From: an uncultured Bacilli bacterium
Lineage (GTDB): Bacteria; Bacillota_I; Bacilli_A; RF39; UBA660
DNA length: 33,574 nt
NCBI GenBank assembly: GCA_910578745.1
Contig: CAJTSN010000007.1
Location: 2,855 to 36,428, forward strand
Reading direction: 5' to 3'
The notes under the pieces are model-generated. The model made no database searches. It was given only the letters and a program-made list of their open reading frames with translations, and had not been told where the DNA came from. The first letter of the stretch is position 1, and each line of letters begins with the position of its first letter. Shown one piece after another: positions 4,263 to 31,892 of this stretch. Both the position numbers and the translations under genes were made by a program.

Positions 4263-4793
4263 ATGAAACAAATTGTAATACTTTCAATACTTATTTTATT
4301 TTTTGTAGGAGGCGTTTATCGGGTAAAATCAGAGGATCTTTTAATTCCAAAAGAAGCAATTCGTTTACGTGTCGTTGCAAATTCAGATAAAGAAATTGAC
4401 CAGAAAACAAAATTTAAAGTAACGGATAGTATTCAAGATAAAATATATGAACTTTTGAAAAATACAACAGGAATTGATGAGGCGAGAAAAATTATCAATG
4501 ATAATATTGACTTACTTGATAAAGATGTGAAACGGGTTTTAACTGAAGAAAAATATCCACTTTCTTATGAATTAAAATATGGACTTAACTATTTTCCTGA
4601 AAAAAAATATAAGGGAGTCACTTATGAAGAAGGCTATTATGAATCCATTCTTGTTACTTTAGGAGAAGGCAAAGGAAAAAATTGGTGGTGTGTTCTTTTC
4701 CCTCCACTTTGTGTCATGGAAGCCGATGAAACAGATACGGATGAGAAAGAATATAAATTTTTTATTCAAGAATTGATTGAAAAATATTTATAA
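4263..4793 (+). CDS. spoIIR: Stage II sporulation protein R (forespore signal for pro-sigma-E processing)
   Basis: N-terminal signal anchor, IRLRVVANSD motif, and GEGKGKNWWCVLFPPLC motif typical of SpoIIR. SD GGAGATGA lies upstream. Confidence 0.8.
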   Translation: MKQIVILSILILFFVGGVYRVKSEDLLIPKEAIRLRVVANSDKEIDQKTKFKVTDSIQDKIYELLKNTTGIDEARKIINDNIDLLDKDVKRVLTEEKYPLSYELKYGLNYFPEKKYKGVTYEEGYYESILVTLGEGKGKNWWCVLFPPLCVMEADETDTDEKEYKFFIQELIEKYL

Positions 4794-4821
4794 ATTTCAT
4801 ATAATGTCCTATGGTGATATT

Positions 4822-5577
4822 ATGAAAAAGAGTGATATATATTTAAATGGCCCTATTTCTAAGGGTAAAGAACAAGGTTTAGAGGACATCGTAAATCAAG
4901 CCGTCAAAAAGGACATTCAAGTTCTTTCAATTCTTGATTGTATTGAAAAGACAGATGGCGTGTTGCGTACAACCTCCTCATGTAGAGATGCTCTAAAACA
5001 TAGAGCTGAAATTATGGAGCTACAAAGAATGAGAAATGAAATAACATTACTAAATGGGATTCAAGTTTCACAACCCTATGAAAGAGGAGAAGAATTCGAG
5101 TTCTATGCAAGCTTTCCTATGGATATGATTGTAGGAATAGTAGATGATTTTGATAAGGGATTGCAAAAAGAAGAAGAAATAAAAAAAGCTTATGATGATT
5201 ACTATTGTAAAAATCTGTATGCTGTTGAAAGTGGAAAAATTGATGTCTTGTCACATCTTGGTTTAATTCATACTTATTATGGCTATAGATACTGTAATGA
5301 TTCATTAATTGATACGTTGTTAAGAGAAATGATTCATCGAAATGTTTTATTGGAAATTACATCAGGTGTTCAAAGAAAAGATAACTTTTCTACATTTCCA
5401 TCTTATGATTTATTAAAACGATATAAAAAATTAGGTGGCGAAATGGTTACGATAGGGACTCATGCAAATGATATTCAAAATATAGGAAAAAATTTAGAAG
5501 AAACTTATCAAATTGCACATGACTTAGAATTGAATCCCGGTTATTTTCAAAAAAGAAAGTTCAAAAAAATACTATAA
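4822..5577 (+). CDS. PHP-domain (histidinol-phosphatase-like) protein with a degenerate N-terminal metal motif
   Basis: DVLSHLGLI and TIGTHAND resemble the central and C-terminal PHP/HisK motifs. The N-terminus reads SDIYLNG where D-x-H-x-H is expected. The start is uncertain (ATGs at 4777, 4804 and 4822). Confidence 0.4.
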   Translation: MKKSDIYLNGPISKGKEQGLEDIVNQAVKKDIQVLSILDCIEKTDGVLRTTSSCRDALKHRAEIMELQRMRNEITLLNGIQVSQPYERGEEFEFYASFPMDMIVGIVDDFDKGLQKEEEIKKAYDDYYCKNLYAVESGKIDVLSHLGLIHTYYGYRYCNDSLIDTLLREMIHRNVLLEITSGVQRKDNFSTFPSYDLLKRYKKLGGEMVTIGTHANDIQNIGKNLEETYQIAHDLELNPGYFQKRKFKKIL

Positions 5578-5580
5578 CTT

Positions 5581-5616
5581 GTCCTCCCATCATATACTAA
5601 GGTGGGAGGTCTTTTT
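5581..5616 (+). terminator. Intrinsic terminator whose 3' arm contains the mntP Shine-Dalgarno sequence
   Basis: CCTCCCA (5583-5589) pairs with TGGGAGG (5603-5609) around a 13-nt loop, followed by T5 (5612-5616). The mntP ATG follows immediately at 5617. Confidence 0.6.
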
Positions 5617-6150
5617 ATGGACTTAATCACGGTTATTTTAATTGCTGTTAGTTTAAGCATGGATGCTTTTAGTTTGTCTTTAGCTTATGGAACCCTTGGA
5701 CTTTCAAAGCGAGATATTTATTTACTATCTATTATAGTAGGGTTGTATCATTTCTTTATGCCTTTGATAGGAATGTATATAGGGTATTGGATACTAAAAG
5801 TAGTTCCTATTTCTCCAGATATCATTGTTTTGCTTGTACTTAGCATTATTGGTGTTCAAATGATCATTTCTTCTTTTAATGAAAATAGAGAGATCAAGAT
5901 AATGAATGTCATTGAACTTTTATTATTTGGTCTTGCCGTTAGCATAGATAGTTTTTCAGTAGGGTTAGGTCTTCGAAGTATTTATGAAATTCCAGTGGTA
6001 TGTTCTTTGATTTTTATGGGTTCTAGTGGTTTATTTACTTACCTAGGATTAAAATTAGGAAAAACAATTAATCATAAATTAGGAAAAACAGCCACCTTAT
6101 TTGGAGGAATGATGTTGATTTTAATTGGTATATTTTACCTATTTAAATGA
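5617..6150 (+). CDS. mntP: Manganese efflux pump MntP family (DUF204)
   Basis: MDLITVILIAVSLSMDAFSLSLAYG and a second AVSIDSFSVGLGL repeat, about six TM helices, 177 aa. Confidence 0.8.
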   Translation: MDLITVILIAVSLSMDAFSLSLAYGTLGLSKRDIYLLSIIVGLYHFFMPLIGMYIGYWILKVVPISPDIIVLLVLSIIGVQMIISSFNENREIKIMNVIELLLFGLAVSIDSFSVGLGLRSIYEIPVVCSLIFMGSSGLFTYLGLKLGKTINHKLGKTATLFGGMMLILIGIFYLFK

Positions 6151-9744: not shown

Positions 9745-9800
9745 ATGTAAGTAATTAAATTTCTATGACAGACCTTGTCATGGCGGAAGGAGATTAGTGT

Positions 9801-11200: not shown

Positions 11201-11225
11201 TTTATGCTAATAAGAGGTGATGACT

Positions 11226-12167
11226 ATGAAAAAAATATTCTTTTTCTTTCTCGTCGTTTTATTAGTACCAACAGGCATTATTTTCTTATTGTTGAGAGAA
11301 AAAGAGCCTAAAAAAAATGGTTCTATTATTCATAATGGTTCTTCCATCGAAGATAAGATAGTTCGTGTGAAACGTGTAAGCAAAGATACAATAGAAGAAG
11401 TTCCACTAGAAGATTATGTTGTTGGGGTTGTATCTGGAGAAATGCCTATTTCCTTTTCAGATGAAGCTTTAAAAGCACAAGCGGTGTGTGCTAGAACGTA
11501 TGTGATTCGAAAAATGGACAATAATAAGGATAAAGAGTATGACGTAGTTGATACGATTGATAATCAAGTCTATCAAGATCTTGAGGAACTTAAAAATAAA
11601 TGGAAAGAAAAATATGATGAAAATATAAAAAAATTAAAAAAAATTGTAAAAGAAACAGAAAGAGAATATTTAACTTATGATGGAAAAGTGATAGAAGTAT
11701 TCTTTTTTTCAACAAGCAATGGTCATACAGAAAATAGCGAAGAAGTATTTACAAAAGCTCTTCCCTATTTGAAAAGTGTGGATTCTTCTTTTGATGAGGA
11801 AGTTTCTCCTGTTTTTAAAAAAGAGGTTGAAATGAGTTTAAGTGACTTTTATACAAAATTATCCCTTCCATACGCAAAACAGTTGGAATATAAGGTTCTA
11901 GAAAGAACACAAGCTGGAAGTGTAAAAAAAATAAGGATTAATGGGGAAGAATATAAAGGAACTGAGGTAAGAAAACTTTTAGGTATTCGTTCTACTTATT
12001 TTGAATTTATAGTAAATGGAACAAATGTTTTAATTAAAACAACGGGATATGGGCATGGCGTTGGCATGAGTCAGTATGGAGCGCTTGCTCTTTCTAATAA
12101 AGGATATACATATGATAAAATTTTAAAATATTATTATCAAGGAGTTGAAATTCAAAAAATAAGTTAA
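11226..12167 (+). CDS. spoIID: Stage II sporulation protein D (SpoIID/LytB lytic transglycosylase family)
   Basis: ALKAQAVCARTY, DNQVYQ, FFSTSNGHTENSEEVF and GHGVGMSQYGA motifs. ATG 11226 follows AAGAGGTGA. Confidence 0.85.
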   Translation: MKKIFFFFLVVLLVPTGIIFLLLREKEPKKNGSIIHNGSSIEDKIVRVKRVSKDTIEEVPLEDYVVGVVSGEMPISFSDEALKAQAVCARTYVIRKMDNNKDKEYDVVDTIDNQVYQDLEELKNKWKEKYDENIKKLKKIVKETEREYLTYDGKVIEVFFFSTSNGHTENSEEVFTKALPYLKSVDSSFDEEVSPVFKKEVEMSLSDFYTKLSLPYAKQLEYKVLERTQAGSVKKIRINGEEYKGTEVRKLLGIRSTYFEFIVNGTNVLIKTTGYGHGVGMSQYGALALSNKGYTYDKILKYYYQGVEIQKIS

Positions 12168-12219: not shown

Positions 12220-12864
12220 ATGGAAGGAAGAAGATTAAAACGACCAGTTGTGTATGCGATGTATGGAATTGCTTTCGCACTTATTCTAACATCTCTTTAT
12301 GTGATGAGTATGAAGTCAAAACAAACATTTAAAAGTGAAGAAATTCCACCAACTTATGTATCAAAAGTAATCTTTGATGATACCGTAAGCGTTATTCGGG
12401 AAACCAATACAAAGGATAAAGTATTTATAAAACCTTTTGTAGCTGAAAATGTGACAATCAATAAACACTTCTATGATGATACAGAAGAAAATCAGGAAAG
12501 TGCCATCATATATTATGAAAATACATATATGCAAAGTACTGGAATTGAATATGCAAGCAATGAACCATTTGATGTTGTTGCAACCTATGGTGGAACCGTA
12601 ACCGCCGTTACAGAAGATGAGTTGCTTGGAAATATCATTCAAATTACACATGAAAATGGTTTTGTAAGTAATTATGAAAGTGTATCGGATGTACGTGTCA
12701 AAGTGAATGATATAGTAGAAGGGGGAACAGTCATAGCAAAAAGTGGGAATGCCAATCTATTTAAAGATGTAGAAAATGGACTTTATTATGAACTTGTTTT
12801 AGATAGTAAAAATATAAATCCACTTTTAAGTTATGATAAATCAATTGCTGAAATAAAGGGTTAA
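12220..12864 (+). CDS. spoIIQ: SpoIIQ-like forespore protein with a degenerate LytM (M23) domain
   Basis: N-terminal TM anchor plus a LytM-like core in which the metal ligands are replaced (STGIEYA where HxGxDxA is expected, YESV for YAHL, GLYYEL for HLHFE). Located between spoIID and spoIIID. Confidence 0.6.
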   Translation: MEGRRLKRPVVYAMYGIAFALILTSLYVMSMKSKQTFKSEEIPPTYVSKVIFDDTVSVIRETNTKDKVFIKPFVAENVTINKHFYDDTEENQESAIIYYENTYMQSTGIEYASNEPFDVVATYGGTVTAVTEDELLGNIIQITHENGFVSNYESVSDVRVKVNDIVEGGTVIAKSGNANLFKDVENGLYYELVLDSKNINPLLSYDKSIAEIKG

Positions 12865-12924: not shown

Positions 12925-13167
12925 TTGAATTATATAAATGCAAGAGTGCTTAAAGAAGCGCAAGTTATTATGGAAACTGGGTATACTATTAGAGAAATCG
13001 CCAAGATGTTTCATGTATCAAAAAGTACAGTACATAAAGATTTACATGAACGTCTTCTTAAAATTGATAAAATAAAATATAAAAAAGTAGATGATATTTT
13101 AAAGTTTCATACAGATATAAGACATATACGTGGAGGCGAATCTACAAGACGAAAATATCAAAAGTAA
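12925..13167 (+). CDS. spoIIID: Stage III sporulation protein D, mother-cell HTH transcription factor
   Basis: TIREIAKMFHVSKSTVHKDL HTH and ...HIRGGESTRRKY tail, 80 aa. TTG start after AAGGGGGA. Confidence 0.9.
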   Translation: MNYINARVLKEAQVIMETGYTIREIAKMFHVSKSTVHKDLHERLLKIDKIKYKKVDDILKFHTDIRHIRGGESTRRKYQK

Positions 13168-13177
13168 TGGAGGAATT

Positions 13178-14167
13178 ATGTTCGCAAAAGATATAGGAAT
13201 TGATTTAGGAACAGCCAATGTATTGATTTATATTAAAGGAGAAGGAATTGTACTCAATGAACCAAGTGTTGTAGCCATTGATATGGATAGTAGAAAACCC
13301 TTAGCAGTTGGAATGAAAGCGAGAGAAATGCTTGGAAGAACACCCGGTAAAGTGGAAGCCATTCGTCCGATGAAAGATGGTGTAATTGCCGACTTTGAAA
13401 CGACGGAGATTATGTTAAATCACTTTATACGTGAAGTGAATGGAAAAGGAATTCTATCGAAACCTCGTATTTTAATTTGTTGTCCTTCTAATATTACACA
13501 AGTGGAGAAAAATGCAATTAAAGAAGCGGCAGAAAGAACAGGCGCTCGAAGGGTCTATATCGAAGAGGAACCCAAAGTGGCCGCTGTAGGCGCTGGTCTT
13601 GATATTTCTCTTCCAAGTGGAAATATGGTGATTGATATTGGAGGTGGAACAACGGACATTGCTATTTTATCGATGGGGGATATAGTAACTTCTTCTTCTA
13701 TTAAAATAGCAGGAAATGTTTTTGACGCTGACATTGAAAAATATATTAAAGAAAAATATAAATTACTCATTGGGGATAGAACGGCAGAAGAGATTAAGTT
13801 ACAAATAGGAACGGTGTATAGTGGTTCTAAAAAAGAGAAAATGATGGTTCGAGGAAGAGATTTAGTAACTGGCTTACCACATACAATTACGATTTGTTCT
13901 GATGAAATTGAAGAGGCCTTAAGGGAAAGTGCCTACATTATTGTGCATACAGCCAAGACCGTTTTGGAAAGTACACCGCCTGAACTGTCTGCAGATATTA
14001 TTGGAAAAGGCGTTGTTTTAACTGGAGGAGGAGCTTTAATTCATGGTATTGATAAGTTATTACAACAAGAATTAAAGGTTCCAGTCATCGTGGCCTCTTC
14101 ACCCCTTACTTGTGTTGCGGAAGGGACAGGAATTTTATTAAATAACTTAAAACTATTAGATCATTAA
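13178..14167 (+). CDS. mbl: Rod-shape-determining actin homologue MreB/Mbl
   Basis: IGIDLGTANV, DIGGGTTDIA, and LTGGGALI. ATG 13178 follows GGAGGA. I prefer the symbol mbl only because of the spoIIID-mbl adjacency known in Bacillus. Confidence 0.9.
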   Translation: MFAKDIGIDLGTANVLIYIKGEGIVLNEPSVVAIDMDSRKPLAVGMKAREMLGRTPGKVEAIRPMKDGVIADFETTEIMLNHFIREVNGKGILSKPRILICCPSNITQVEKNAIKEAAERTGARRVYIEEEPKVAAVGAGLDISLPSGNMVIDIGGGTTDIAILSMGDIVTSSSIKIAGNVFDADIEKYIKEKYKLLIGDRTAEEIKLQIGTVYSGSKKEKMMVRGRDLVTGLPHTITICSDEIEEALRESAYIIVHTAKTVLESTPPELSADIIGKGVVLTGGGALIHGIDKLLQQELKVPVIVASSPLTCVAEGTGILLNNLKLLDH

Positions 14168-22279: not shown

Positions 22280-22828
22280 ATGATTTATATGCATAGTGAT
22301 TTTATAAAGCGTGGTTATAAGGATTATCATGTAAAAAGATTGATGAAAGAGGGAAAACTTTATTTCATTGAAAAAGGTGTATATTCCACAAAAAAAGAGA
22401 TTAACTATTTTGAGTATATTGTAAAAAAACATCCCAATGCAATCATTGATTTATGGACAGCGTGTTATTGTTATGGTTTTTTAAAGGAAAATAAAATGCC
22501 CTATGTGATTGCTACAAAACAAAAAGATAGAAAAATAAAAAAAGAAAATTTAAAACAAATATTTATGAGTGATGACTTATATAATCTTGGTATAAATATA
22601 TTAAAGTTTGAAGGAGTCAAAATAAAAACCTTCGATATAGAACGTTTACTTATAGAAGTGGTTCGTAATAAGACAAATATTGATTATGAAGTATATGAAG
22701 AGATTATACAAAGTTATAGAAAATTAAAAAATCTACTCAATAAGAGAAAACTTCAATCTTATCTACCCTTCTTTAAGGACAAGAGAATTGTAAATCGAAT
22801 CGCCACCGAAGTTTTTGATGAAAAATAG
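22280..22828 (+). CDS. AbiEi-family (type IV toxin-antitoxin antitoxin-like) wHTH protein, with no adjacent AbiEii
   Basis: The N-terminal L..EGKLYFIEKGVYS pattern, the central AIIDLWTACYCYGF... segment and FDIERLLIEVVRN resemble the AbiEi pattern (l..G.l.ri.rGvY / sAl..hgl / ERTl.D). Assigned from memory of the family, not from a search. Confidence 0.5.
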   Translation: MIYMHSDFIKRGYKDYHVKRLMKEGKLYFIEKGVYSTKKEINYFEYIVKKHPNAIIDLWTACYCYGFLKENKMPYVIATKQKDRKIKKENLKQIFMSDDLYNLGINILKFEGVKIKTFDIERLLIEVVRNKTNIDYEVYEEIIQSYRKLKNLLNKRKLQSYLPFFKDKRIVNRIATEVFDEK

Positions 22829-22928: not shown

Positions 22929-22957
22929 AAAAAAGTAAAATAGGGGAGGATAGAGTG

Positions 22958-23671
22958 ATGTTCATTTTATATGATGATCATGATTTGTTCATGGAAAAAA
23001 GTAAAAGTATTATCGATTCCATTGGTAATATGATGGGAGGAACGAGTATAAAATGTTTCTCTAAATTTGATGAAGATTTTGAACAAGTCATTCAAGACAA
23101 AAGCTGTAAAAAGATTTATGTTTTAGATATTGAAGTTCCGGGAAGTATTTCAGGGATTGAAGTAGCCAAGAAAATAAGAAAATTCGATTGGGATAGCATC
23201 ATTATAATGGTAACTTCTCATACAGAATTAGGGTATGAAGCTTTAAAGGCTCAAATTATGCTATTAGATTTTATTTCTAAACATAGTGATTGGGAAAATA
23301 ATCTGCGTAGTGCTTTAACAAAGGCAGTATCTTTGTTAGATAATAAGAATGTAATTATTTTAGATTCGAATGGGTTAACGTATCGAATACATACAACAGA
23401 TATTGTCTATATACTCAAAGATTCTAAAGAGAGAAAATGTACGATTAGGACACTAAATGATAAAATTATGGTATCTAAAAGTATCACAGATTTAGGAAAA
23501 AGGTTAGATAGGAGGTTTTTTCAATCACATAGAAGTTGTTATGTAAATATAGAGCAAATATCTACAGTAGATTGGAGAAATAGTGTCATACATTTTAGGA
23601 CAGGAGATACAGTAGATTATCTAGCTCGTGATAAGAAGAAGGAGTTAAGGATCCTAACACCAGTATGTTAG
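22958..23671 (+). CDS. LytTR-family response regulator (AgrA-like)
   Basis: Receiver domain (YDDHD acidic pocket, VLDIEVPG phospho-Asp context, MVTSH). C-terminal LytTR domain (IVYILKDSKERKCTIRT...RFFQSHRSCYVNIEQI). GGAGG lies 8 nt upstream of ATG 22958. Confidence 0.85.
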   Translation: MFILYDDHDLFMEKSKSIIDSIGNMMGGTSIKCFSKFDEDFEQVIQDKSCKKIYVLDIEVPGSISGIEVAKKIRKFDWDSIIIMVTSHTELGYEALKAQIMLLDFISKHSDWENNLRSALTKAVSLLDNKNVIILDSNGLTYRIHTTDIVYILKDSKERKCTIRTLNDKIMVSKSITDLGKRLDRRFFQSHRSCYVNIEQISTVDWRNSVIHFRTGDTVDYLARDKKKELRILTPVC

Positions 23672-24972
23672 AAATAAGTAGTACGTTTTTATCATTTATG
23701 ATAACTTATGTGGTAGATTGTGTTTTATTTAAGAAATTGACTGATTCGAAGAGGAAGCTAATCACAATAAAAAATATAGTATTTCTAGTAATAATGAGCA
23801 TGATTTCATGTTTCATTGATGTAAATTATGGAGACTTTCCTAAGTTGATATTTTGTAATATACAGATATGTATATTATATAAATTAGTATTTGATATGTC
23901 TATGTTAAAATCAATACTGTTTACAATAGCAATAGTAATAGTATCAAATATAGCAGAGTATATATTTGTACTGATTTTTATTATAGGTATGAAAATAGAT
24001 ACTTCATATTTCACAAGTAATATAGCTGGATACTGGATTGTTAATTTAAGTGTTACCCTTTTATATTATCTTTTGCTTATAATGAAACCAGTTAGATGGC
24101 TTGTTCAAAAGAGTCTTAATTTTTTTAGTGAAAGTTATAAGATAGAAACAGTAATATTATTATTATTGTCAATGTTTTTAATAGCGGGTCTTACTTATCC
24201 AATAATAATGACATCATCTGTTAGAGAAAAAATCACATATAGTTTAGTTTTTATAGCATTTGTATATTTTATAGGAAATTTCTTTTATCAACGTTCAAAG
24301 AATGGGGAGCTGAAAAAAGCGTATGATTATTTATTAGAATATGTAAAAGAGTATGAAAAAGCATTAGATGAAAAGAGTAAAGCACAACATGAATACAAAA
24401 ATCAATTATCTGTTATAAGAGGAATGGCAAATAAGAATAATAAAAAGTTACACAAATATATAGATGATATGTTAGAAATAGAAGAGAATAAGGAAAGTCG
24501 AATCTTAAACAACTTAAAGCCACTACCAACAGGAGGATTAAAGGGATTAATTTATTATAAGACAGCCAGTATGATAAAGAAGAGTATGGAAGTACATGTG
24601 AATGTAGATAGTACATTAGAAAATGAGGAGTATTGGAATTTATGCGAGAAGAATCTACATAGTATTAGTACAATAGTGGGAGTTTATTTAGATAATGCAA
24701 TAGAAGCCGCAGAAAATGCAGAGAAGAAGTTTGTAATTATAGATATAGATGTAGAGGAAGGAAATATCATATTTAGTTTTTCAAATACATATGAAGGACA
24801 TATAGAAGTAGGGAAGATGGATAAGCAAGGGTATTCAACAAAGGGAAAAAAGAGGGGGTATGGATTATCACTTGTACAGGATATTTTAAACAAGAATACA
24901 TATTTATCGCAGGAGAGAGAAATGAATGGTATATTTTATGTACAAAAACTAATTATCCAAAATAAAAAGTAG
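23665..24972 (+). CDS. AgrC-like (HPK10) GHKL sensor histidine kinase
   Basis: Polytopic N-terminal sensor of about six TM helices, H-box AQHEYKNQLSVIRGM, N-box YLDNAIEAAENA, and G-box KGKKRGYGLSLV. 7-nt overlap with the regulator gene. Confidence 0.8.
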   Translation: MLEISSTFLSFMITYVVDCVLFKKLTDSKRKLITIKNIVFLVIMSMISCFIDVNYGDFPKLIFCNIQICILYKLVFDMSMLKSILFTIAIVIVSNIAEYIFVLIFIIGMKIDTSYFTSNIAGYWIVNLSVTLLYYLLLIMKPVRWLVQKSLNFFSESYKIETVILLLLSMFLIAGLTYPIIMTSSVREKITYSLVFIAFVYFIGNFFYQRSKNGELKKAYDYLLEYVKEYEKALDEKSKAQHEYKNQLSVIRGMANKNNKKLHKYIDDMLEIEENKESRILNNLKPLPTGGLKGLIYYKTASMIKKSMEVHVNVDSTLENEEYWNLCEKNLHSISTIVGVYLDNAIEAAENAEKKFVIIDIDVEEGNIIFSFSNTYEGHIEVGKMDKQGYSTKGKKRGYGLSLVQDILNKNTYLSQEREMNGIFYVQKLIIQNKK

Positions 24973-24989
24973 AGTTTGATCTACTTTTT
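24964..24989. terminator. Shared bidirectional terminator between the kinase gene and agrD
   Basis: AAAAAGTAGA (24964-24973), loop gtttga, TCTACTTTTT (24980-24989). The core stem is GTAGA/TCTAC, flanked by an A5 and a T5 run. The two stop codons (TAG 24970-24972 and CTA 24981-24983) pair with each other. Confidence 0.5.
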
Positions 24990-25103
24990 CTCAATTAAAC
25001 TTGCAGGCATTTCTGGTTCATCTAGCCATCCATGATTACAAGATGAATCCCCGCTTGCTCCAAATGTAGAAATCATAAGTAAAGTTTTTGCGATAAATGA
25101 CAT
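24981..25103 (-). CDS. agrD: AgrD-like cyclic (thio)lactone autoinducing-peptide precursor, 40 aa (not in the ORF track)
   Basis: My translation of the minus strand is MSFIAKTLLMISTFGASGDSSCNHGWLDEPEMPASLIEKK. SD AGGAGGG (25110-25116) lies 6 nt before the ATG. The gene starts 44 nt downstream of agrB. It has a hydrophobic leader, a single Cys and an acidic DEPEMP tail, which is the AgrD layout. Confidence 0.75.
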   Translation of the reverse strand: MSFIAKTLLMISTFGASGDSSCNHGWLDEPEMPASLIEKK

Positions 25104-25147
25104 TTTTTTCCCTCCTATTCTTTTTTACATTATAGATGGTGATTAAA

Positions 25148-25759
25148 TTATAGATTATAACGCATTACATAGTTTTTGTAATTGTTATATGGTAAGTGAA
25201 ATAAACGATATGTAAGTGGCAAAATCATAATTGATTCTACGCATACACTAAACAGTATTAAGTTAGAAATTGTACTATTTGAAATTAGGATGGAACTTAT
25301 TATAAAAACAGTACATAATATTGTAGATATAATTTTTTGTTTTTCTCGTTTCTCCTTATAGATAATTGGTGCCTTTTTTGTATCTGCTGGAGCATATACA
25401 AGAAATAAAATAATAGCAATAATGCCTAATATTATTTTTATTTGTATAGGGATTACGATGTTCTTTGCTAAAAAAGGTAGTGTTAAAAAAATCATAGAAG
25501 AAGAACATAAACAAATCCAACTTTTTGTAGCATGTAATCCACAAGCATATTTCCTTAATAAATTAAAGAAAATAAACAGAATGAGTAGTTCTTTTCCAAT
25601 TCCTAATATGAATGCGATAGGGATTATAATTAATGATTTTGTAACAGTTAAATAAAAACTCTCTAAACCGTAGCGGTATTCATCTAACTCAATGTCCGTT
25701 AGATTTGGATATTCTTTTTTTAAAATACCCAGAGTTTTTTTTAAATAGTATTGTTTCAC
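25148..25759 (-). CDS. agrB: AgrB-family membrane peptidase (AgrD processing and cyclisation)
   Basis: 203 aa, polytopic. LRKYACGLHATKSWICLCSS contains the conserved His and Cys context of AgrB (R.y.GG.HA....C). Confidence 0.85.
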   Translation of the reverse strand: MKQYYLKKTLGILKKEYPNLTDIELDEYRYGLESFYLTVTKSLIIIPIAFILGIGKELLILFIFFNLLRKYACGLHATKSWICLCSSSMIFLTLPFLAKNIVIPIQIKIILGIIAIILFLVYAPADTKKAPIIYKEKREKQKIISTILCTVFIISSILISNSTISNLILFSVCVESIMILPLTYRLFHLPYNNYKNYVMRYNL

Positions 25760-25816: not shown

Positions 25817-25871
25817 TTATAGGGGGTAATATTTATTTTAAAGTTTCTATTGGTAAAAATAAAACAAAAAA

Positions 25872-25901
25872 TTACATTTCAAGTATTAAAAATGACATTT
25901 C
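25872..25901. promoter_or_regulatory. LytTR-type direct repeat (9 bp, 12-bp spacer, 9 bp), candidate binding site of the adjacent AgrA-like regulator
   Basis: TTACATTTC (25872-25880), 12-nt spacer aagtattaaaaa, TGACATTTC (25893-25901). Similarity extends upstream, giving 13 of 15 identical positions over AAAAAT[T/G]ACATTTC. Confidence 0.5.
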
Positions 25902-25942: not shown

Positions 25943-25949
25943 TTAACAT

Positions 25950-25972
25950 GTTTCCGCAGACACTACGGAAAC
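25950..25972 (+). other. 5'-proximal stem-loop of the predicted csp leader
   Basis: GTTTCCG (25950-25956), 9-nt loop, CGGAAAC (25966-25972), at the predicted transcript 5' end. Confidence 0.4.
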
Positions 25973-26097
25973 AAAAGGGAGTGGCTTATAGGGATACAAG
26001 ATTTGTCGAAATTTTTGGGTTATATTTTGTTGAATTTATAAGGTTACTAAGGTATATTTAAAGTGTAAGCAATTTTACTAGAAGGGAGATTTATGAA

Positions 26098-26313
26098 ATG
26101 ATAAAGGGTAAGGTAAAATGGTTTAATAATGAGAAAGGATACGGGTTTATAGAGTATAGTGATCGAGAAGATATATTTGTTCACTATTCTTCTATATTGT
26201 CAGAAGGTTATAAGACCTTGGTAGAAGGACAATATGTAGAGTTTGAGCTTGTAAGAACAGATAAAGGTTTGCAGGCAAAGAATGTAATTGAAATTAAAGC
26301 TACTTTGGTATAA
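26098..26313 (+). CDS. Cold-shock protein, CspA family
   Basis: [14 protein letters not shown] (RNP1) and DIFVHYS (RNP2), 71 aa. SD GAAGGGAGA upstream. Confidence 0.95.
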
Positions 26314-29659: not shown

Positions 29660-30544
29660 TTGAAAAAAGATGAAGTAACAGCAGAAATAATTGTAAAAGA
29701 AAATAAAGTAGGAATTTTAAGAGTAGGAAATGTAAATTATATTTCATTAACAGATTTGGCTAAGTATCAAAATTCTAGTGATCCATCTTTTACAGTAAAA
29801 AATTGGTTAAGAAGAATTACAACCATTGACTACATTGGTTTATGGGAAGAAATTCATAATCCTAATTTTAATTTGGTCGAATTCGACCAAATTAAAACGG
29901 AGTATGGTAGAAACTCTTTTGCAATGTCTCCATCACAGTGGATTAAAAGAACTAATGCAGTAGGTATTATCTCTAAAGGTGGAAGGTATAGCATTGGAAC
30001 TTTCGCACATCCAGATATTGCATTTGAATTTGCCAGTTGGTTATCTCCAGAATTTAAGTTATATTTAATAACTGAATTTGAGAGATTAAAAACTAATGAA
30101 GCATATCAAGAAAAAGTAGATTGGCAAGCTAATAGAATACTTTCAAAGTTAAACTATGTAGTTCATACTGATGCAGTAAAGACTTATATAGTTCCAACGC
30201 TTACAGAAGCACAAAAGAAATTCGTATATGCGGAAGAGGCAGATGTTTTAAATGTTGCATTATTTGGTATGACGGCTAAAGAATGGAGAGATAATAATCC
30301 AGAGTTGGCAAAAGAGGGAAATATGAGGGATTATACTGACTTACTACATTTAGTAATATTAAATAATCTTCAAAATACAAATGCGGAATTGATTGAAGAA
30401 AAAGTACCTCAAAATGAAAGACTTGTTAGACTCAATAATTCTGCAAGAAGACAAATGAAAGTATTAAAAAACAATAAGAACATCAAAGAATTAGAATTAT
30501 TACAAAAACAAGTTAATGAAGAAAAAGAATTATTAATTGATTAA
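29660..30544 (+). CDS. KilA-N domain-containing protein
   Basis: ISLTDLAKY..., NWLRRITTIDYIGLWEEIHNPNF, GGRYSIGTFAHPDIAFEFASWLSPEFKLYLITEFERLK fits the KilA-N DNA-binding family pattern. TTG start 9 nt after GTGAGG. Confidence 0.7.
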   Translation: MKKDEVTAEIIVKENKVGILRVGNVNYISLTDLAKYQNSSDPSFTVKNWLRRITTIDYIGLWEEIHNPNFNLVEFDQIKTEYGRNSFAMSPSQWIKRTNAVGIISKGGRYSIGTFAHPDIAFEFASWLSPEFKLYLITEFERLKTNEAYQEKVDWQANRILSKLNYVVHTDAVKTYIVPTLTEAQKKFVYAEEADVLNVALFGMTAKEWRDNNPELAKEGNMRDYTDLLHLVILNNLQNTNAELIEEKVPQNERLVRLNNSARRQMKVLKNNKNIKELELLQKQVNEEKELLID

Positions 30545-30612: not shown

Positions 30613-31892
30613 ATGAGAAGAGTAAATATAAGAAAAAGAGGAAAGGTTTATCAATATCAATTTGAAATTGGAACTATTAATGGGAAAAGGAAGTTTATTA
30701 ATAAGTCAGGCTTTAAAACTCAGAATGAAGCATATGCTGCTGGACAACTTGCTTATGAAAAATATATAAATGGAGGTGTAACTTTTAAACAATCGCAAAT
30801 GTTATATTCTGATTATTTAGATTATTGGATGAAGGAATATTTTGAAATTAATTATAAATACACAACAGCTAAGAGATATTCTGAAGCATTTGAATCTATT
30901 AAAAAGGAATTAGGTAAATATAGATTAGCATATCTAACTCCTTATGTACTAAATCAAGCATTACTTAGAATTGCTCAAAAAGTAAATTCAAAAGATGCAT
31001 TAAGAAATTATCAAAAGGTGATTAGAAGTTCATTAAGGGATGCTGCCTATTATTTTGGTTTTATTGAGAATAATCCTGCAGCTGATTTACAATTACCTAG
31101 ATTCTATTCTTTTGAGGTAAAAAAAACGATGTAAAACATATCTATACTCAAGAAGAAATTGATATGATATTGTTGAGATTCAAAAATAACTATACTTTTA
31201 CTTGTGCATTCCTGACAGCATGTTATACAGGAATGAGAACAGGAGAAGTGTTAGCTTTGACATGGGATGATATAGACTTAGAAAAACAAATAATAAAAGT
31301 TAATAAAACAGTATATGCAAAGACTAAAGATGAAAATGGTAGATGGTATTTGGGTACAACTAAAACAGAGGGTAGTTGTCGAGATGTTTATATCTGTGAT
31401 ACTTTAAAAATAGCATTGCAAAACTACAAAAAGAATCAAGAAAATAACAAAAAACTATATAGAAAAAGCTATCATAATTATTATTTAAAAGAAGTTAAAA
31501 ATAAATATGGTAAGATTGTAGAATATAAAATAATTGAACTCAAACATAAATCTAAAAATAGATCACAAATCAATTTAGTCTTTACAAAAAATGATGGGAG
31601 CTATTCTGGAACAGATTTACTCAGGTATCCATTTAAAATTATTCATAAAGAACTAAATATTAAGAATTGTAGATTTTATGATTTAAGAGGAAGCTTTGCA
31701 ACTAAGACATTAAGAGGTGGAATTGAAATTAAAGATGTTTCTAGTGTACTTGGACATAGTAGAGTAGAAACCACAGAAAATTATTATATTAGTAGCAATG
31801 AAGAAACAAAAAGAAGTGCAAGTGAGTCGTTTGAACAAATAGTACAATCTAAAGTAATTGATGAGATAATAAATTACGATACAGAAAAATAA
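30613..31892 (+). pseudogene. Tyrosine recombinase (phage/ICE-type integrase) split into two ORFs by a frame break in an A8 run
   Basis: ORF 30613..31134 carries the arm-binding N-terminus (RKRGKVYQYQFEI) and the SAM-like core-binding domain. ORF 31164..31892 carries catalytic TGMRTGEV (Arg), YDLRGSFAT, LGHSRVETTENYY (His-x-x-Arg and Tyr). The downstream frame is open from 31116 and the two frames meet in AAAAAAAA (31119-31126). Confidence 0.75.

Follow-up and report, generated by a model that had tools for sequence, protein, structure and literature searches.

A 33,574-nt stretch of DNA from an uncultured Bacilli bacterium of the RF39 lineage (GenBank assembly GCA_910578745.1, contig CAJTSN010000007.1, positions 2,855 to 36,428), referred to here as the window, contains a 40-codon open reading frame (ORF) at 24981-25103 on the minus strand. 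This ORF is very probably agrD, the gene for the precursor of a cyclic autoinducing peptide (AIP), within a complete agr-type locus in which agrB-agrD is convergent with agrA-agrC. If the peptide is AgrD, sequence comparison suggests that the product released by AgrB is likely to be the six-residue ring CNHGWL. The identification draws on features observed in the window and its relatives: the gene itself, family membership, conservation and selection pattern, locus architecture, repeat geometry, and the co-variation of peptide alleles with receptor sensors. The precursor gene, its parts and its processing partner are as follows.

24981..25103, minus strand: agrD, 40-codon precursor gene, recognised from its ORF and translation, the model TIGR04223, conservation 3' of agrB and a codon-level selection pattern

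25116..25110, minus strand: Shine-Dalgarno sequence AGGAGGG with a 6-nt spacer to the agrD ATG (25103..25101), read from the sequence

25023..25040, minus strand: codons of the predicted macrocycle C-N-H-G-W-L, from Cys22 (25040-25038) to Leu27 (25025-25023)

24984..25022, minus strand: codons of the predicted AgrB-recognition tail DEPEMPASLIEKK, delimited by clade conservation and the pattern of codon differences

25148..25759, minus strand: agrB, with a GTG start, encoding a 203-aa membrane peptidase/cyclase predicted to process AgrD (Pfam PF04647, E = 1.1e-34)

The translation of agrD is MSFIAKTLLMISTFGASGDSSCNHGWLDEPEMPASLIEKK. It divides into a leader (M1-S21), a predicted AIP core (C22-L27) and a recognition tail (D28-K40), followed by the stop codon at 24983-24981. 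The single cysteine is residue 22 (codon 25040..25038), and the five residues NHGWL separate it from DEPEMP. The peptide thus has the tripartite AgrD layout of a hydrophobic leader, a single Cys and an acidic Pro-containing tail, and the gene has the general position of agrD, a short ORF, usually of about 40-55 aa, directly 3' of agrB in the same orientation, here after a gap of 44 nt. The coordinates, the strand, the ribosome-binding sequence and its spacing, the distance to agrB and the three-part layout had been proposed in a first-pass annotation made from the letters of the window, and all were confirmed from the sequence. That annotation also called the gene unlisted and the precursor new. 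The first term is correct for its own ORF track only; the identical 40-aa peptide has already been called as a gene in NCBI, ENA, JGI and Logan assemblies (70 contigs; 131 index blocks). The second was overstated for a peptide in public collections, and what stands of it is that the core CNHGWL is uncharacterised as far as literature could be found.

A search with an AgrD profile hidden Markov model (HMM), which the annotation had suggested as a check, was successful. The peptide reaches 20.6 bits against NCBIfam TIGR04223, where the curated cut-off is 19 (E = 3.7e-4), and residues 2-37 align to model positions 5-37 of 38. Together with conservation, selection and locus context, this result bears out the proposal that the gene encodes an AIP precursor.

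Related loci were collected by an AgrB scan of one genome per species, which gave 80 loci; the AgrD spacing was parsed in 81 loci. All 80 come from uncultured gut metagenome-assembled genomes (MAGs) that are labelled 'Bacilli', 'Tenericutes' or 'Firmicutes', or are mis-binned. Their sources are human, chicken, rabbit, ruminant and mouse, and some are closed chromosomes of 1.2-1.3 Mb. The host of the window is an uncultured, small-genome gut member of the Bacillota, with closest relatives labelled 'uncultured Bacilli' or 'Tenericutes' MAGs. In nearly all of the approximately 80 species-level loci, agrB is followed by a 37-46-aa ORF of the same architecture; where one seems to be missing, the contig ends (L012, L040) or the ORF opens with GTG (L073). 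A seeming absence of agrB from the gene calls of L085-L088 was rejected as a gene-calling gap; the frame is open there and scores as well as that of L001.

Selection on agrD differs between the parts of the precursor. Among six alleles of the species group of the window, codons that differ in the tail comprise 42 synonymous and 14 non-synonymous cases, and those in the core comprise 11 synonymous and 42 non-synonymous cases. Because these ratios are opposite, the ORF appears to be translated; the codon pattern points to purifying selection that constrains the tail and to diversification of the core. A wider profile of 108 aligned clade peptides (108 of 111 passed), chosen by a pattern that included the Cys, gave a similar division. 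Entropy relative to the Cys is 2.5-3.6 bits at positions +1 to +5 and at most 0.6 bits at +6 to +8 (D-E-P), the values at +6 and +7 being partly imposed by the selection pattern of the profile. The tail D-E-P-x-x-P-x-S-L-I is near-invariant among these peptides. The Cys is invariant in this alignment, which was selected on it, and a few relatives outside the alignment have Ser there.

The spacing between the Cys and the tail motif is the main guide to ring size. Canonical five-residue rings have Cys plus four residues before the tail motif, an arrangement that is absent from the AgrD of the window; instead, C-NHGWL-DEPEMP has Cys plus five residues before x-E-P-x-x-P, as in precursors of six-residue rings. 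Cys plus five residues (x5 spacing) precedes D/E-E-P in 74 of the 81 parsed clade loci. When 1.84 billion representative proteins were searched with a profile, approximately 31 short peptides were recovered, all with x5 spacing and all from the same clade; the search reached this clade alone and therefore gives no global ratio of x4 to x5. Three long profile matches (P0052, P0061, P0073) were rejected as chance hits to unrelated repeat proteins with W-L-D-E-P motifs.

An experimental precedent is available in Clostridium acetobutylicum. Its AgrD (...GKCVLVTLYEPKMPEELL) reads C-VLVTL-YEPKMP, i.e. Cys plus five residues and then x-E-P-x-M-P (PMC10301443 suppl. Fig. S1). The AIP was found to be a 6-membered macrocycle that lacks an N-terminal extension and rearranges to a lactam (PMC8251862), a synthetic six-ring, tail-less peptide, R6T0, has been used as the active signal (PMC10301443), and [CVLVTL] is listed among known AIPs in a 2025 primer (PMC12312760 Table 1). 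Six-membered rings have been assigned to this AgrD class in approximately eleven clostridia, including predictions for about 10 other solventogenic or cellulolytic species (PMC10301443). The x5 spacing is consequently a known class, already explained experimentally, and is the norm in this gut lineage. The first-pass annotation had described it as unusual, which holds in comparison with S. aureus (Staphylococcus aureus), where the spacing is one residue shorter, and fails for the clade and for C. acetobutylicum. Of the two rings that it had offered, CNHGWL and CNHGW, the six-residue form is better supported by this precedent and by the entropy boundary. Because entropy drops abruptly between +5 and +6, position +5 is taken to act as part of the signal, and the boundary between signal and tail to lie at Leu27-Asp28.

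The predictions differ in mass and can be synthesised. The computed [M+H]+ is 711.303 for the CNHGWL macrocycle, the concrete candidate that emerges from this work, and 598.219 for the CNHGW macrocycle. The corresponding C-terminal fragments have a computed mass M of 1485.74 for DEPEMPASLIEKK (13 residues) and 1598.82 for LDEPEMPASLIEKK (14 residues).

Some relatives depart from the usual core. Ser takes the place of Cys in L019 (SLVVIF) and P0081 (SWFWFV), implying lactones, and Gly stands at the ring position in P0072. Cys plus six residues is found in L011 (CAVLIFF), L038 (CVWFWLA) and L005 (CSPRFIL), in the last of which Ser could alternatively start an x5 ring.

Residues before the Cys bear on N-terminal processing. 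In the 108-peptide profile, G is typical at -4, S or T at -3 and A, G or S at -1. The clade-typical residues are G-S-Q-A, and those of the window AgrD are G-D-S-S. Such small residues at -1 and -3 would suit a cut adjacent to the Cys, and this would yield a tail-less peptide able to form a lactam. Tail-less AIPs are known to rearrange by an S-to-N acyl shift to homodetic cyclopeptides (PMC8251862).

AgrB of the window carries the residues that would be needed for processing. An alignment of 92 homologues shows no variation at R69, G74, H76 and C83, and we take these residues to correspond to the essential R70, G75, H77 and C84 of S. aureus AgrB by position and by His-to-Cys spacing. A PDB sequence search with AgrB gave no match. 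Convergent with agrB-agrD is a two-component system.

22955..23671, plus strand: AgrA-like response regulator with receiver and LytTR domains (LytTR, E = 6.5e-14; Response_reg, E = 1.7e-8)

23665..24972, plus strand: AgrC-like membrane histidine kinase (GHKL), 435 aa, the predicted AIP receptor (HATPase_c_5, E = 2.4e-14)

These two genes overlap by 7 nt and form an agrA-agrC operon. An adjoining two-component system composed of a polytopic HPK10-type kinase and a LytTR regulator, the combination expected of an agr locus, is therefore present. Directly upstream of the agrA-like gene is an ORF of 182 aa (22280-22828), which is kept beside agr in all close relatives at 84-96% identity; its only Pfam matches are weak and sub-threshold (DUF2204 nucleotidyltransferase, AbiEi_4).

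Public assemblies contain at least six AgrD core alleles: CNHGWL, CIHGWI, CNKGWL, CSHAWL, CVRWWL/CLKTWL and CMKFWL. They differ mainly at +1 to +3 after the Cys, and the rest of the precursor is conserved. Between different alleles, the sensor half of the AgrC-like kinase (residues 1-200) has 27-66% identity and the kinase half 78-92%, AgrB has 86-98%, and flanking proteins in the closest strains have 92-100% (SecA 94%, HPF 92%, Csp 100%, with the P-type ATPase within the same range). Independent assemblies with the CNHGWL allele have sensors that are 99.5-100% identical. Because this pattern of variation matches that of the S. aureus agr groups, AgrD and the kinase are likely to be a functioning ligand-receptor pair under diversifying selection.

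Three relatives with CMKFWL or CNKGWL alleles contain a tandem duplication of 1.4 kb (100% and 99.86% identity), located at 4534-5944 and 6351-7761 in L081 and at 4580-6053 and 6550-8024 in L087, and also present in L082. The duplicated unit consists of the AgrC-like kinase gene and the first ~50 codons of the regulator, which are in single copy in the window. The duplication is either real or an assembly artefact.

Several observations weigh against the interpretation given here. The Pfam model AgrD PF05931, which was built mainly on staphylococcal sequences, gives the peptide 15 bits, below its gathering threshold of 22.7. The AgrC and AgrA equivalog models (NF046015, NF046049) match end-to-end and score far below their cut-offs; relative to their staphylococcal counterparts, the proteins of the window are divergent homologues rather than orthologues. 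The window encodes no leader protease of the MroQ/CAAX type. Loci that share an allele come from near-identical strains (kinase half 100%), so that they are consistent with co-variation and do not form an independent test of it. The proposed ring size is drawn from tail-motif homology and one experimentally characterised precedent, and among close alleles the W at +4 is invariant and +5 is L or I only. The last point can be read to mean that +5 belongs to the recognition sequence. AgrB would then cut after Trp26, giving a five-residue ring CNHGW, and Leu27 would start a tail one residue longer (LDEPEMP...). Five-residue rings are by far the commonest (PMC12312760 Table 1; PMC10301443), which also favours such a product. 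It is nevertheless unlikely here. In the 108-peptide profile, positions +5 and +4 vary to the same degree (2.58 and 2.51 bits, respectively) and the boundary between +5 and +6 is sharp. The x-E-P-x-x-P tail aligns residue for residue with that of C. acetobutylicum (L|YEPKMP), the organism in which a six-membered product was detected. Cleavage in the AgrD proteins of S. aureus, Listeria and Clostridium perfringens occurs directly before a (D/Y/H)-(E/Q) pair, a position that corresponds to Leu27-Asp28 in the window. The cleavage position, ring size, tail length and thiolactone or lactam form preferred here are thus predictions of graded strength, the six-residue ring being the probable one.

Two further explanations would remove the peptide from agr signalling altogether. 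A decayed, non-functional remnant or a chance ORF beside agrB, in a locus that no longer signals, is conceivable in so far as S. aureus populations often include agr-defective variants (PMC12312760) and the agrD core of one relative, L006, contains an in-frame TGA. We consider this highly improbable, since the agrD ORF of the window is intact and has a strong Shine-Dalgarno sequence, the same peptide recurs in many independent assemblies (131 index blocks), the tail shows the marks of purifying selection, the catalytic residues of AgrB are intact, and the receptor sensor co-diversifies with the AgrD core, which requires ongoing selection on signalling. The first-pass annotation had named loss of the ORF in close relatives that keep agrB as evidence against the gene; the ORF is kept in nearly all of the approximately 80 loci, and L006 may be a case on the other side. 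It is scarcely credible that the ORF encodes another secreted peptide that is merely next to agrB, such as a pheromone or bacteriocin with a double-glycine leader or a linear, unmodified signal. The small Gly/Ser-rich stretch GASGDSS before the Cys and the sub-threshold Pfam AgrD score agree with such a peptide, but the precursor has no GG-leader cleavage motif with a mature domain after it, and neither a peptidase-C39 ABC transporter nor an immunity gene is encoded in the window. It also bears the AgrD signature of invariant Cys, invariant DEPxxP tail, obligate pairing with agrB across approximately 80 loci and a TIGR04223 score above the cut-off.

The agrD sequence of L006 (about 5270-5390) reads SQACFT*WWDEEETPKSLIK, the asterisk being the TGA; if TGA is read as Trp, the core becomes CFTWWW with x5 spacing. 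Under genetic code 4, the total length of ORFs of at least 150 aa increases by 45% in L006 and by 6-21% in the other loci tested. UGA may be read as Trp in L006, or the locus may carry a nonsense-mutant allele.

Accepting the ORF as agrD, two sequence elements around the locus may contribute to its regulation.

25867-25880 and 25888-25901, minus strand: two direct repeats GAAATGT(C/A)ATTTTT of 14 nt, 21 bp from start to start, about 110-140 nt upstream of agrB

24964..24989, both strands: perfect 10-bp inverted repeat with a 6-nt loop, AAAAAGTAGA / TCTACTTTTT, found by repeat search and RNA folds

The direct repeat that the first-pass annotation had placed at 25872-25901 does exist, as these two 14-nt copies. 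In the form of 9-bp units with a 12-bp spacer, the pair reads GAAATGTCA-N12-GAAATGTAA at 25872-25901, the paired-repeat arrangement known from agr systems, and the pair at 25867-25901 is the only zero-mismatch match in the window. In relatives, near-perfect 9-mers at the exact 21-bp offset occur between -250 and -90 of agrB in 14 loci, compared with 0-4 loci at other offsets (12-32). On the basis of this geometry, which is that of AgrA/LytTR sites, the repeats are a predicted binding site of the AgrA-like LytTR regulator for autoinduction. A consensus promoter scan returned no more sites than in shuffled sequence.

The inverted repeat at 24964-24989 folds at -10.4 kcal/mol (z = -2.2) and -9.5 kcal/mol (z = -3.6) on the two strands. 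Inside this hairpin, which is probably a weak, AT-rich bidirectional terminator, agrD and the AgrC-like kinase gene both end, their TAG stop codons separated by 8 nt. With fewer than three G-C pairs in its stem, the hairpin escaped a terminator scan.

Other repeats were also noted near the locus. A 13-nt direct repeat, TTACATTATAGAT / TTAAATTATAGAT, with 18-bp spacing at 25125-25155, spans the agrB stop codon and the intergenic region between agrB and agrD, and could have arisen by chance, the DNA being AT-rich. At 25949-25973, a short distance upstream of the LytTR repeats, is an 11-bp, G+C-containing hairpin, TGTTTCCGCAG / CTACGGAAACA. Read on the minus strand, it is terminator-like, with a T-rich run 3', but there is no minus-strand gene upstream; on the plus strand, a cold-shock gene (26098-26313) begins 125-150 nt further on, and the hairpin could belong to the csp 5' untranslated region.

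The following mechanism is proposed from these elements. AgrB, with His76 and Cys83 as catalytic residues, would cut AgrD at Leu27-Asp28 and free DEPEMPASLIEKK, and the Leu27 carboxyl would form a thiolactone with Cys22 to close the ring CNHGWL, as in C. acetobutylicum. The leader would be removed by a further protease. If that cut falls directly before the Cys, an S-to-N acyl shift would convert the product to the homodetic cyclic hexapeptide cyclo(CNHGWL). The AgrC-like kinase would then detect the secreted peptide through its polytopic sensor domain and phosphorylate the LytTR regulator. The regulator would bind the 21-bp-spaced repeats upstream of agrB and thereby autoinduce agrBD; this binding and any downstream regulon are likewise predictions. 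Strains of the species would carry differing pairs of AgrD core and AgrC sensor alleles, i.e. pherotypes.

The closest counterpart is the agr system of C. acetobutylicum. The two precursors have identical Cys-x5-(D/Y)-E-P-x-M-P spacing, both cores end in a hydrophobic residue, and in both organisms agrBD and the two-component genes are separate operons. The C. acetobutylicum product is a six-residue macrocycle without an N-terminal extension, whereas that of the window is predicted from the genes. The leaders are dissimilar in sequence and in length (~32 residues in C. acetobutylicum and 21 in the window), and the core of the window is polar (N-H-G) while that of C. acetobutylicum is all-hydrophobic. 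The LanM-like CA_C0082 lies by the C. acetobutylicum locus, and no such gene is next to the locus of the window. The window also differs in having convergent operons in the order agrA-agrC and in belonging to an uncultured small-genome gut host rather than a Clostridium. If its leader is cut before Cys22, the peptide would undergo the same S-to-N shift as the clostridial homodetic cyclic AIPs, such as Rc-AIP1 of Ruminiclostridium cellulolyticum (Molloy et al. 2021). The clade motif G-S/T-x-A|C is compatible with cleavage at the Cys, and the window differs from it in having G-D-S-S instead of G-S-Q-A.

S. aureus shares with the window the tripartite AgrD, the AgrB R/G/H/C residues, the polytopic AgrC-type kinase and the LytTR regulator. 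Both also have, upstream of agrB, paired direct repeats with a 21-bp period, and in both, hypervariability within the species is limited to the core of AgrD and the sensor of AgrC. The S. aureus AIP has a five-residue ring with a tail of 2-4 residues, in contrast to the six-residue ring predicted here. S. aureus has a single agrBDCA operon and a divergent RNAIII, and no RNAIII counterpart was identified in the window. Further differences are that the staphylococcal HMMs PF05931, NF046015 and NF046049 leave the window proteins below their cut-offs, and that AgrB of the window is just mildly variable between alleles.

AIPs of the human microbiome have been mined at scale (PMC11953309), and a search of literature on RF39, agr and quorum sensing found no paper describing agr in this lineage. 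The present locus extends well-understood agr signalling to a lineage known from metagenomes alone. The six-residue-ring class of AgrD, discussed until now for approximately eleven clostridia, predominates in a large gut clade. The understanding of agr systems in general is unchanged, and the convergent layout of agrBD and agrA-agrC is a minor variation. An allele structure like that of the S. aureus agr groups implies that strains may not hear, or may inhibit, each other. A broader and tentative proposal, which we regard as possible and still rather doubtful, is that a radiation of at least 75 species-level uncultured gut Bacillota (human, chicken, rabbit, ruminant) uses six-residue-ring, tail-less AIPs almost exclusively, rearranged to homodetic cyclic hexapeptides. 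Pherotypes would coexist within species, with unusually polar His/Lys cores in the species of the window (CNHGWL, CNKGWL, CIHGWI), and would mediate strain interference. If this is true, synthetic peptides would provide a first chemical means of influencing how this uncultured lineage behaves, and possibly of cultivating it.

Elsewhere in the window, a KilA-N domain gene (29660-30544) lies 3' of secA and is followed by a tyrosine integrase in two ORFs, the N-terminal Arm/SAM-like part at 30613-31134 and the catalytic part at 31164-31892. The segment 29660-31892 is probably what is left of a mobile element that had integrated here. Several close relatives have been deposited as 'Tenericutes' or 'Acholeplasma sp.'; the genes for SpoIIR (4263-4793), SpoIID (11217-12167), an M23 peptidase (12220-12864) and MreB (13130-14167) indicate, contrary to these labels, a walled member of the Bacillota that may sporulate. 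Across the window, Rfam gives a single match at gathering score, an L31-Firmicutes ribosomal protein leader at 9763-9792 (34.3 vs 33.3 bits).

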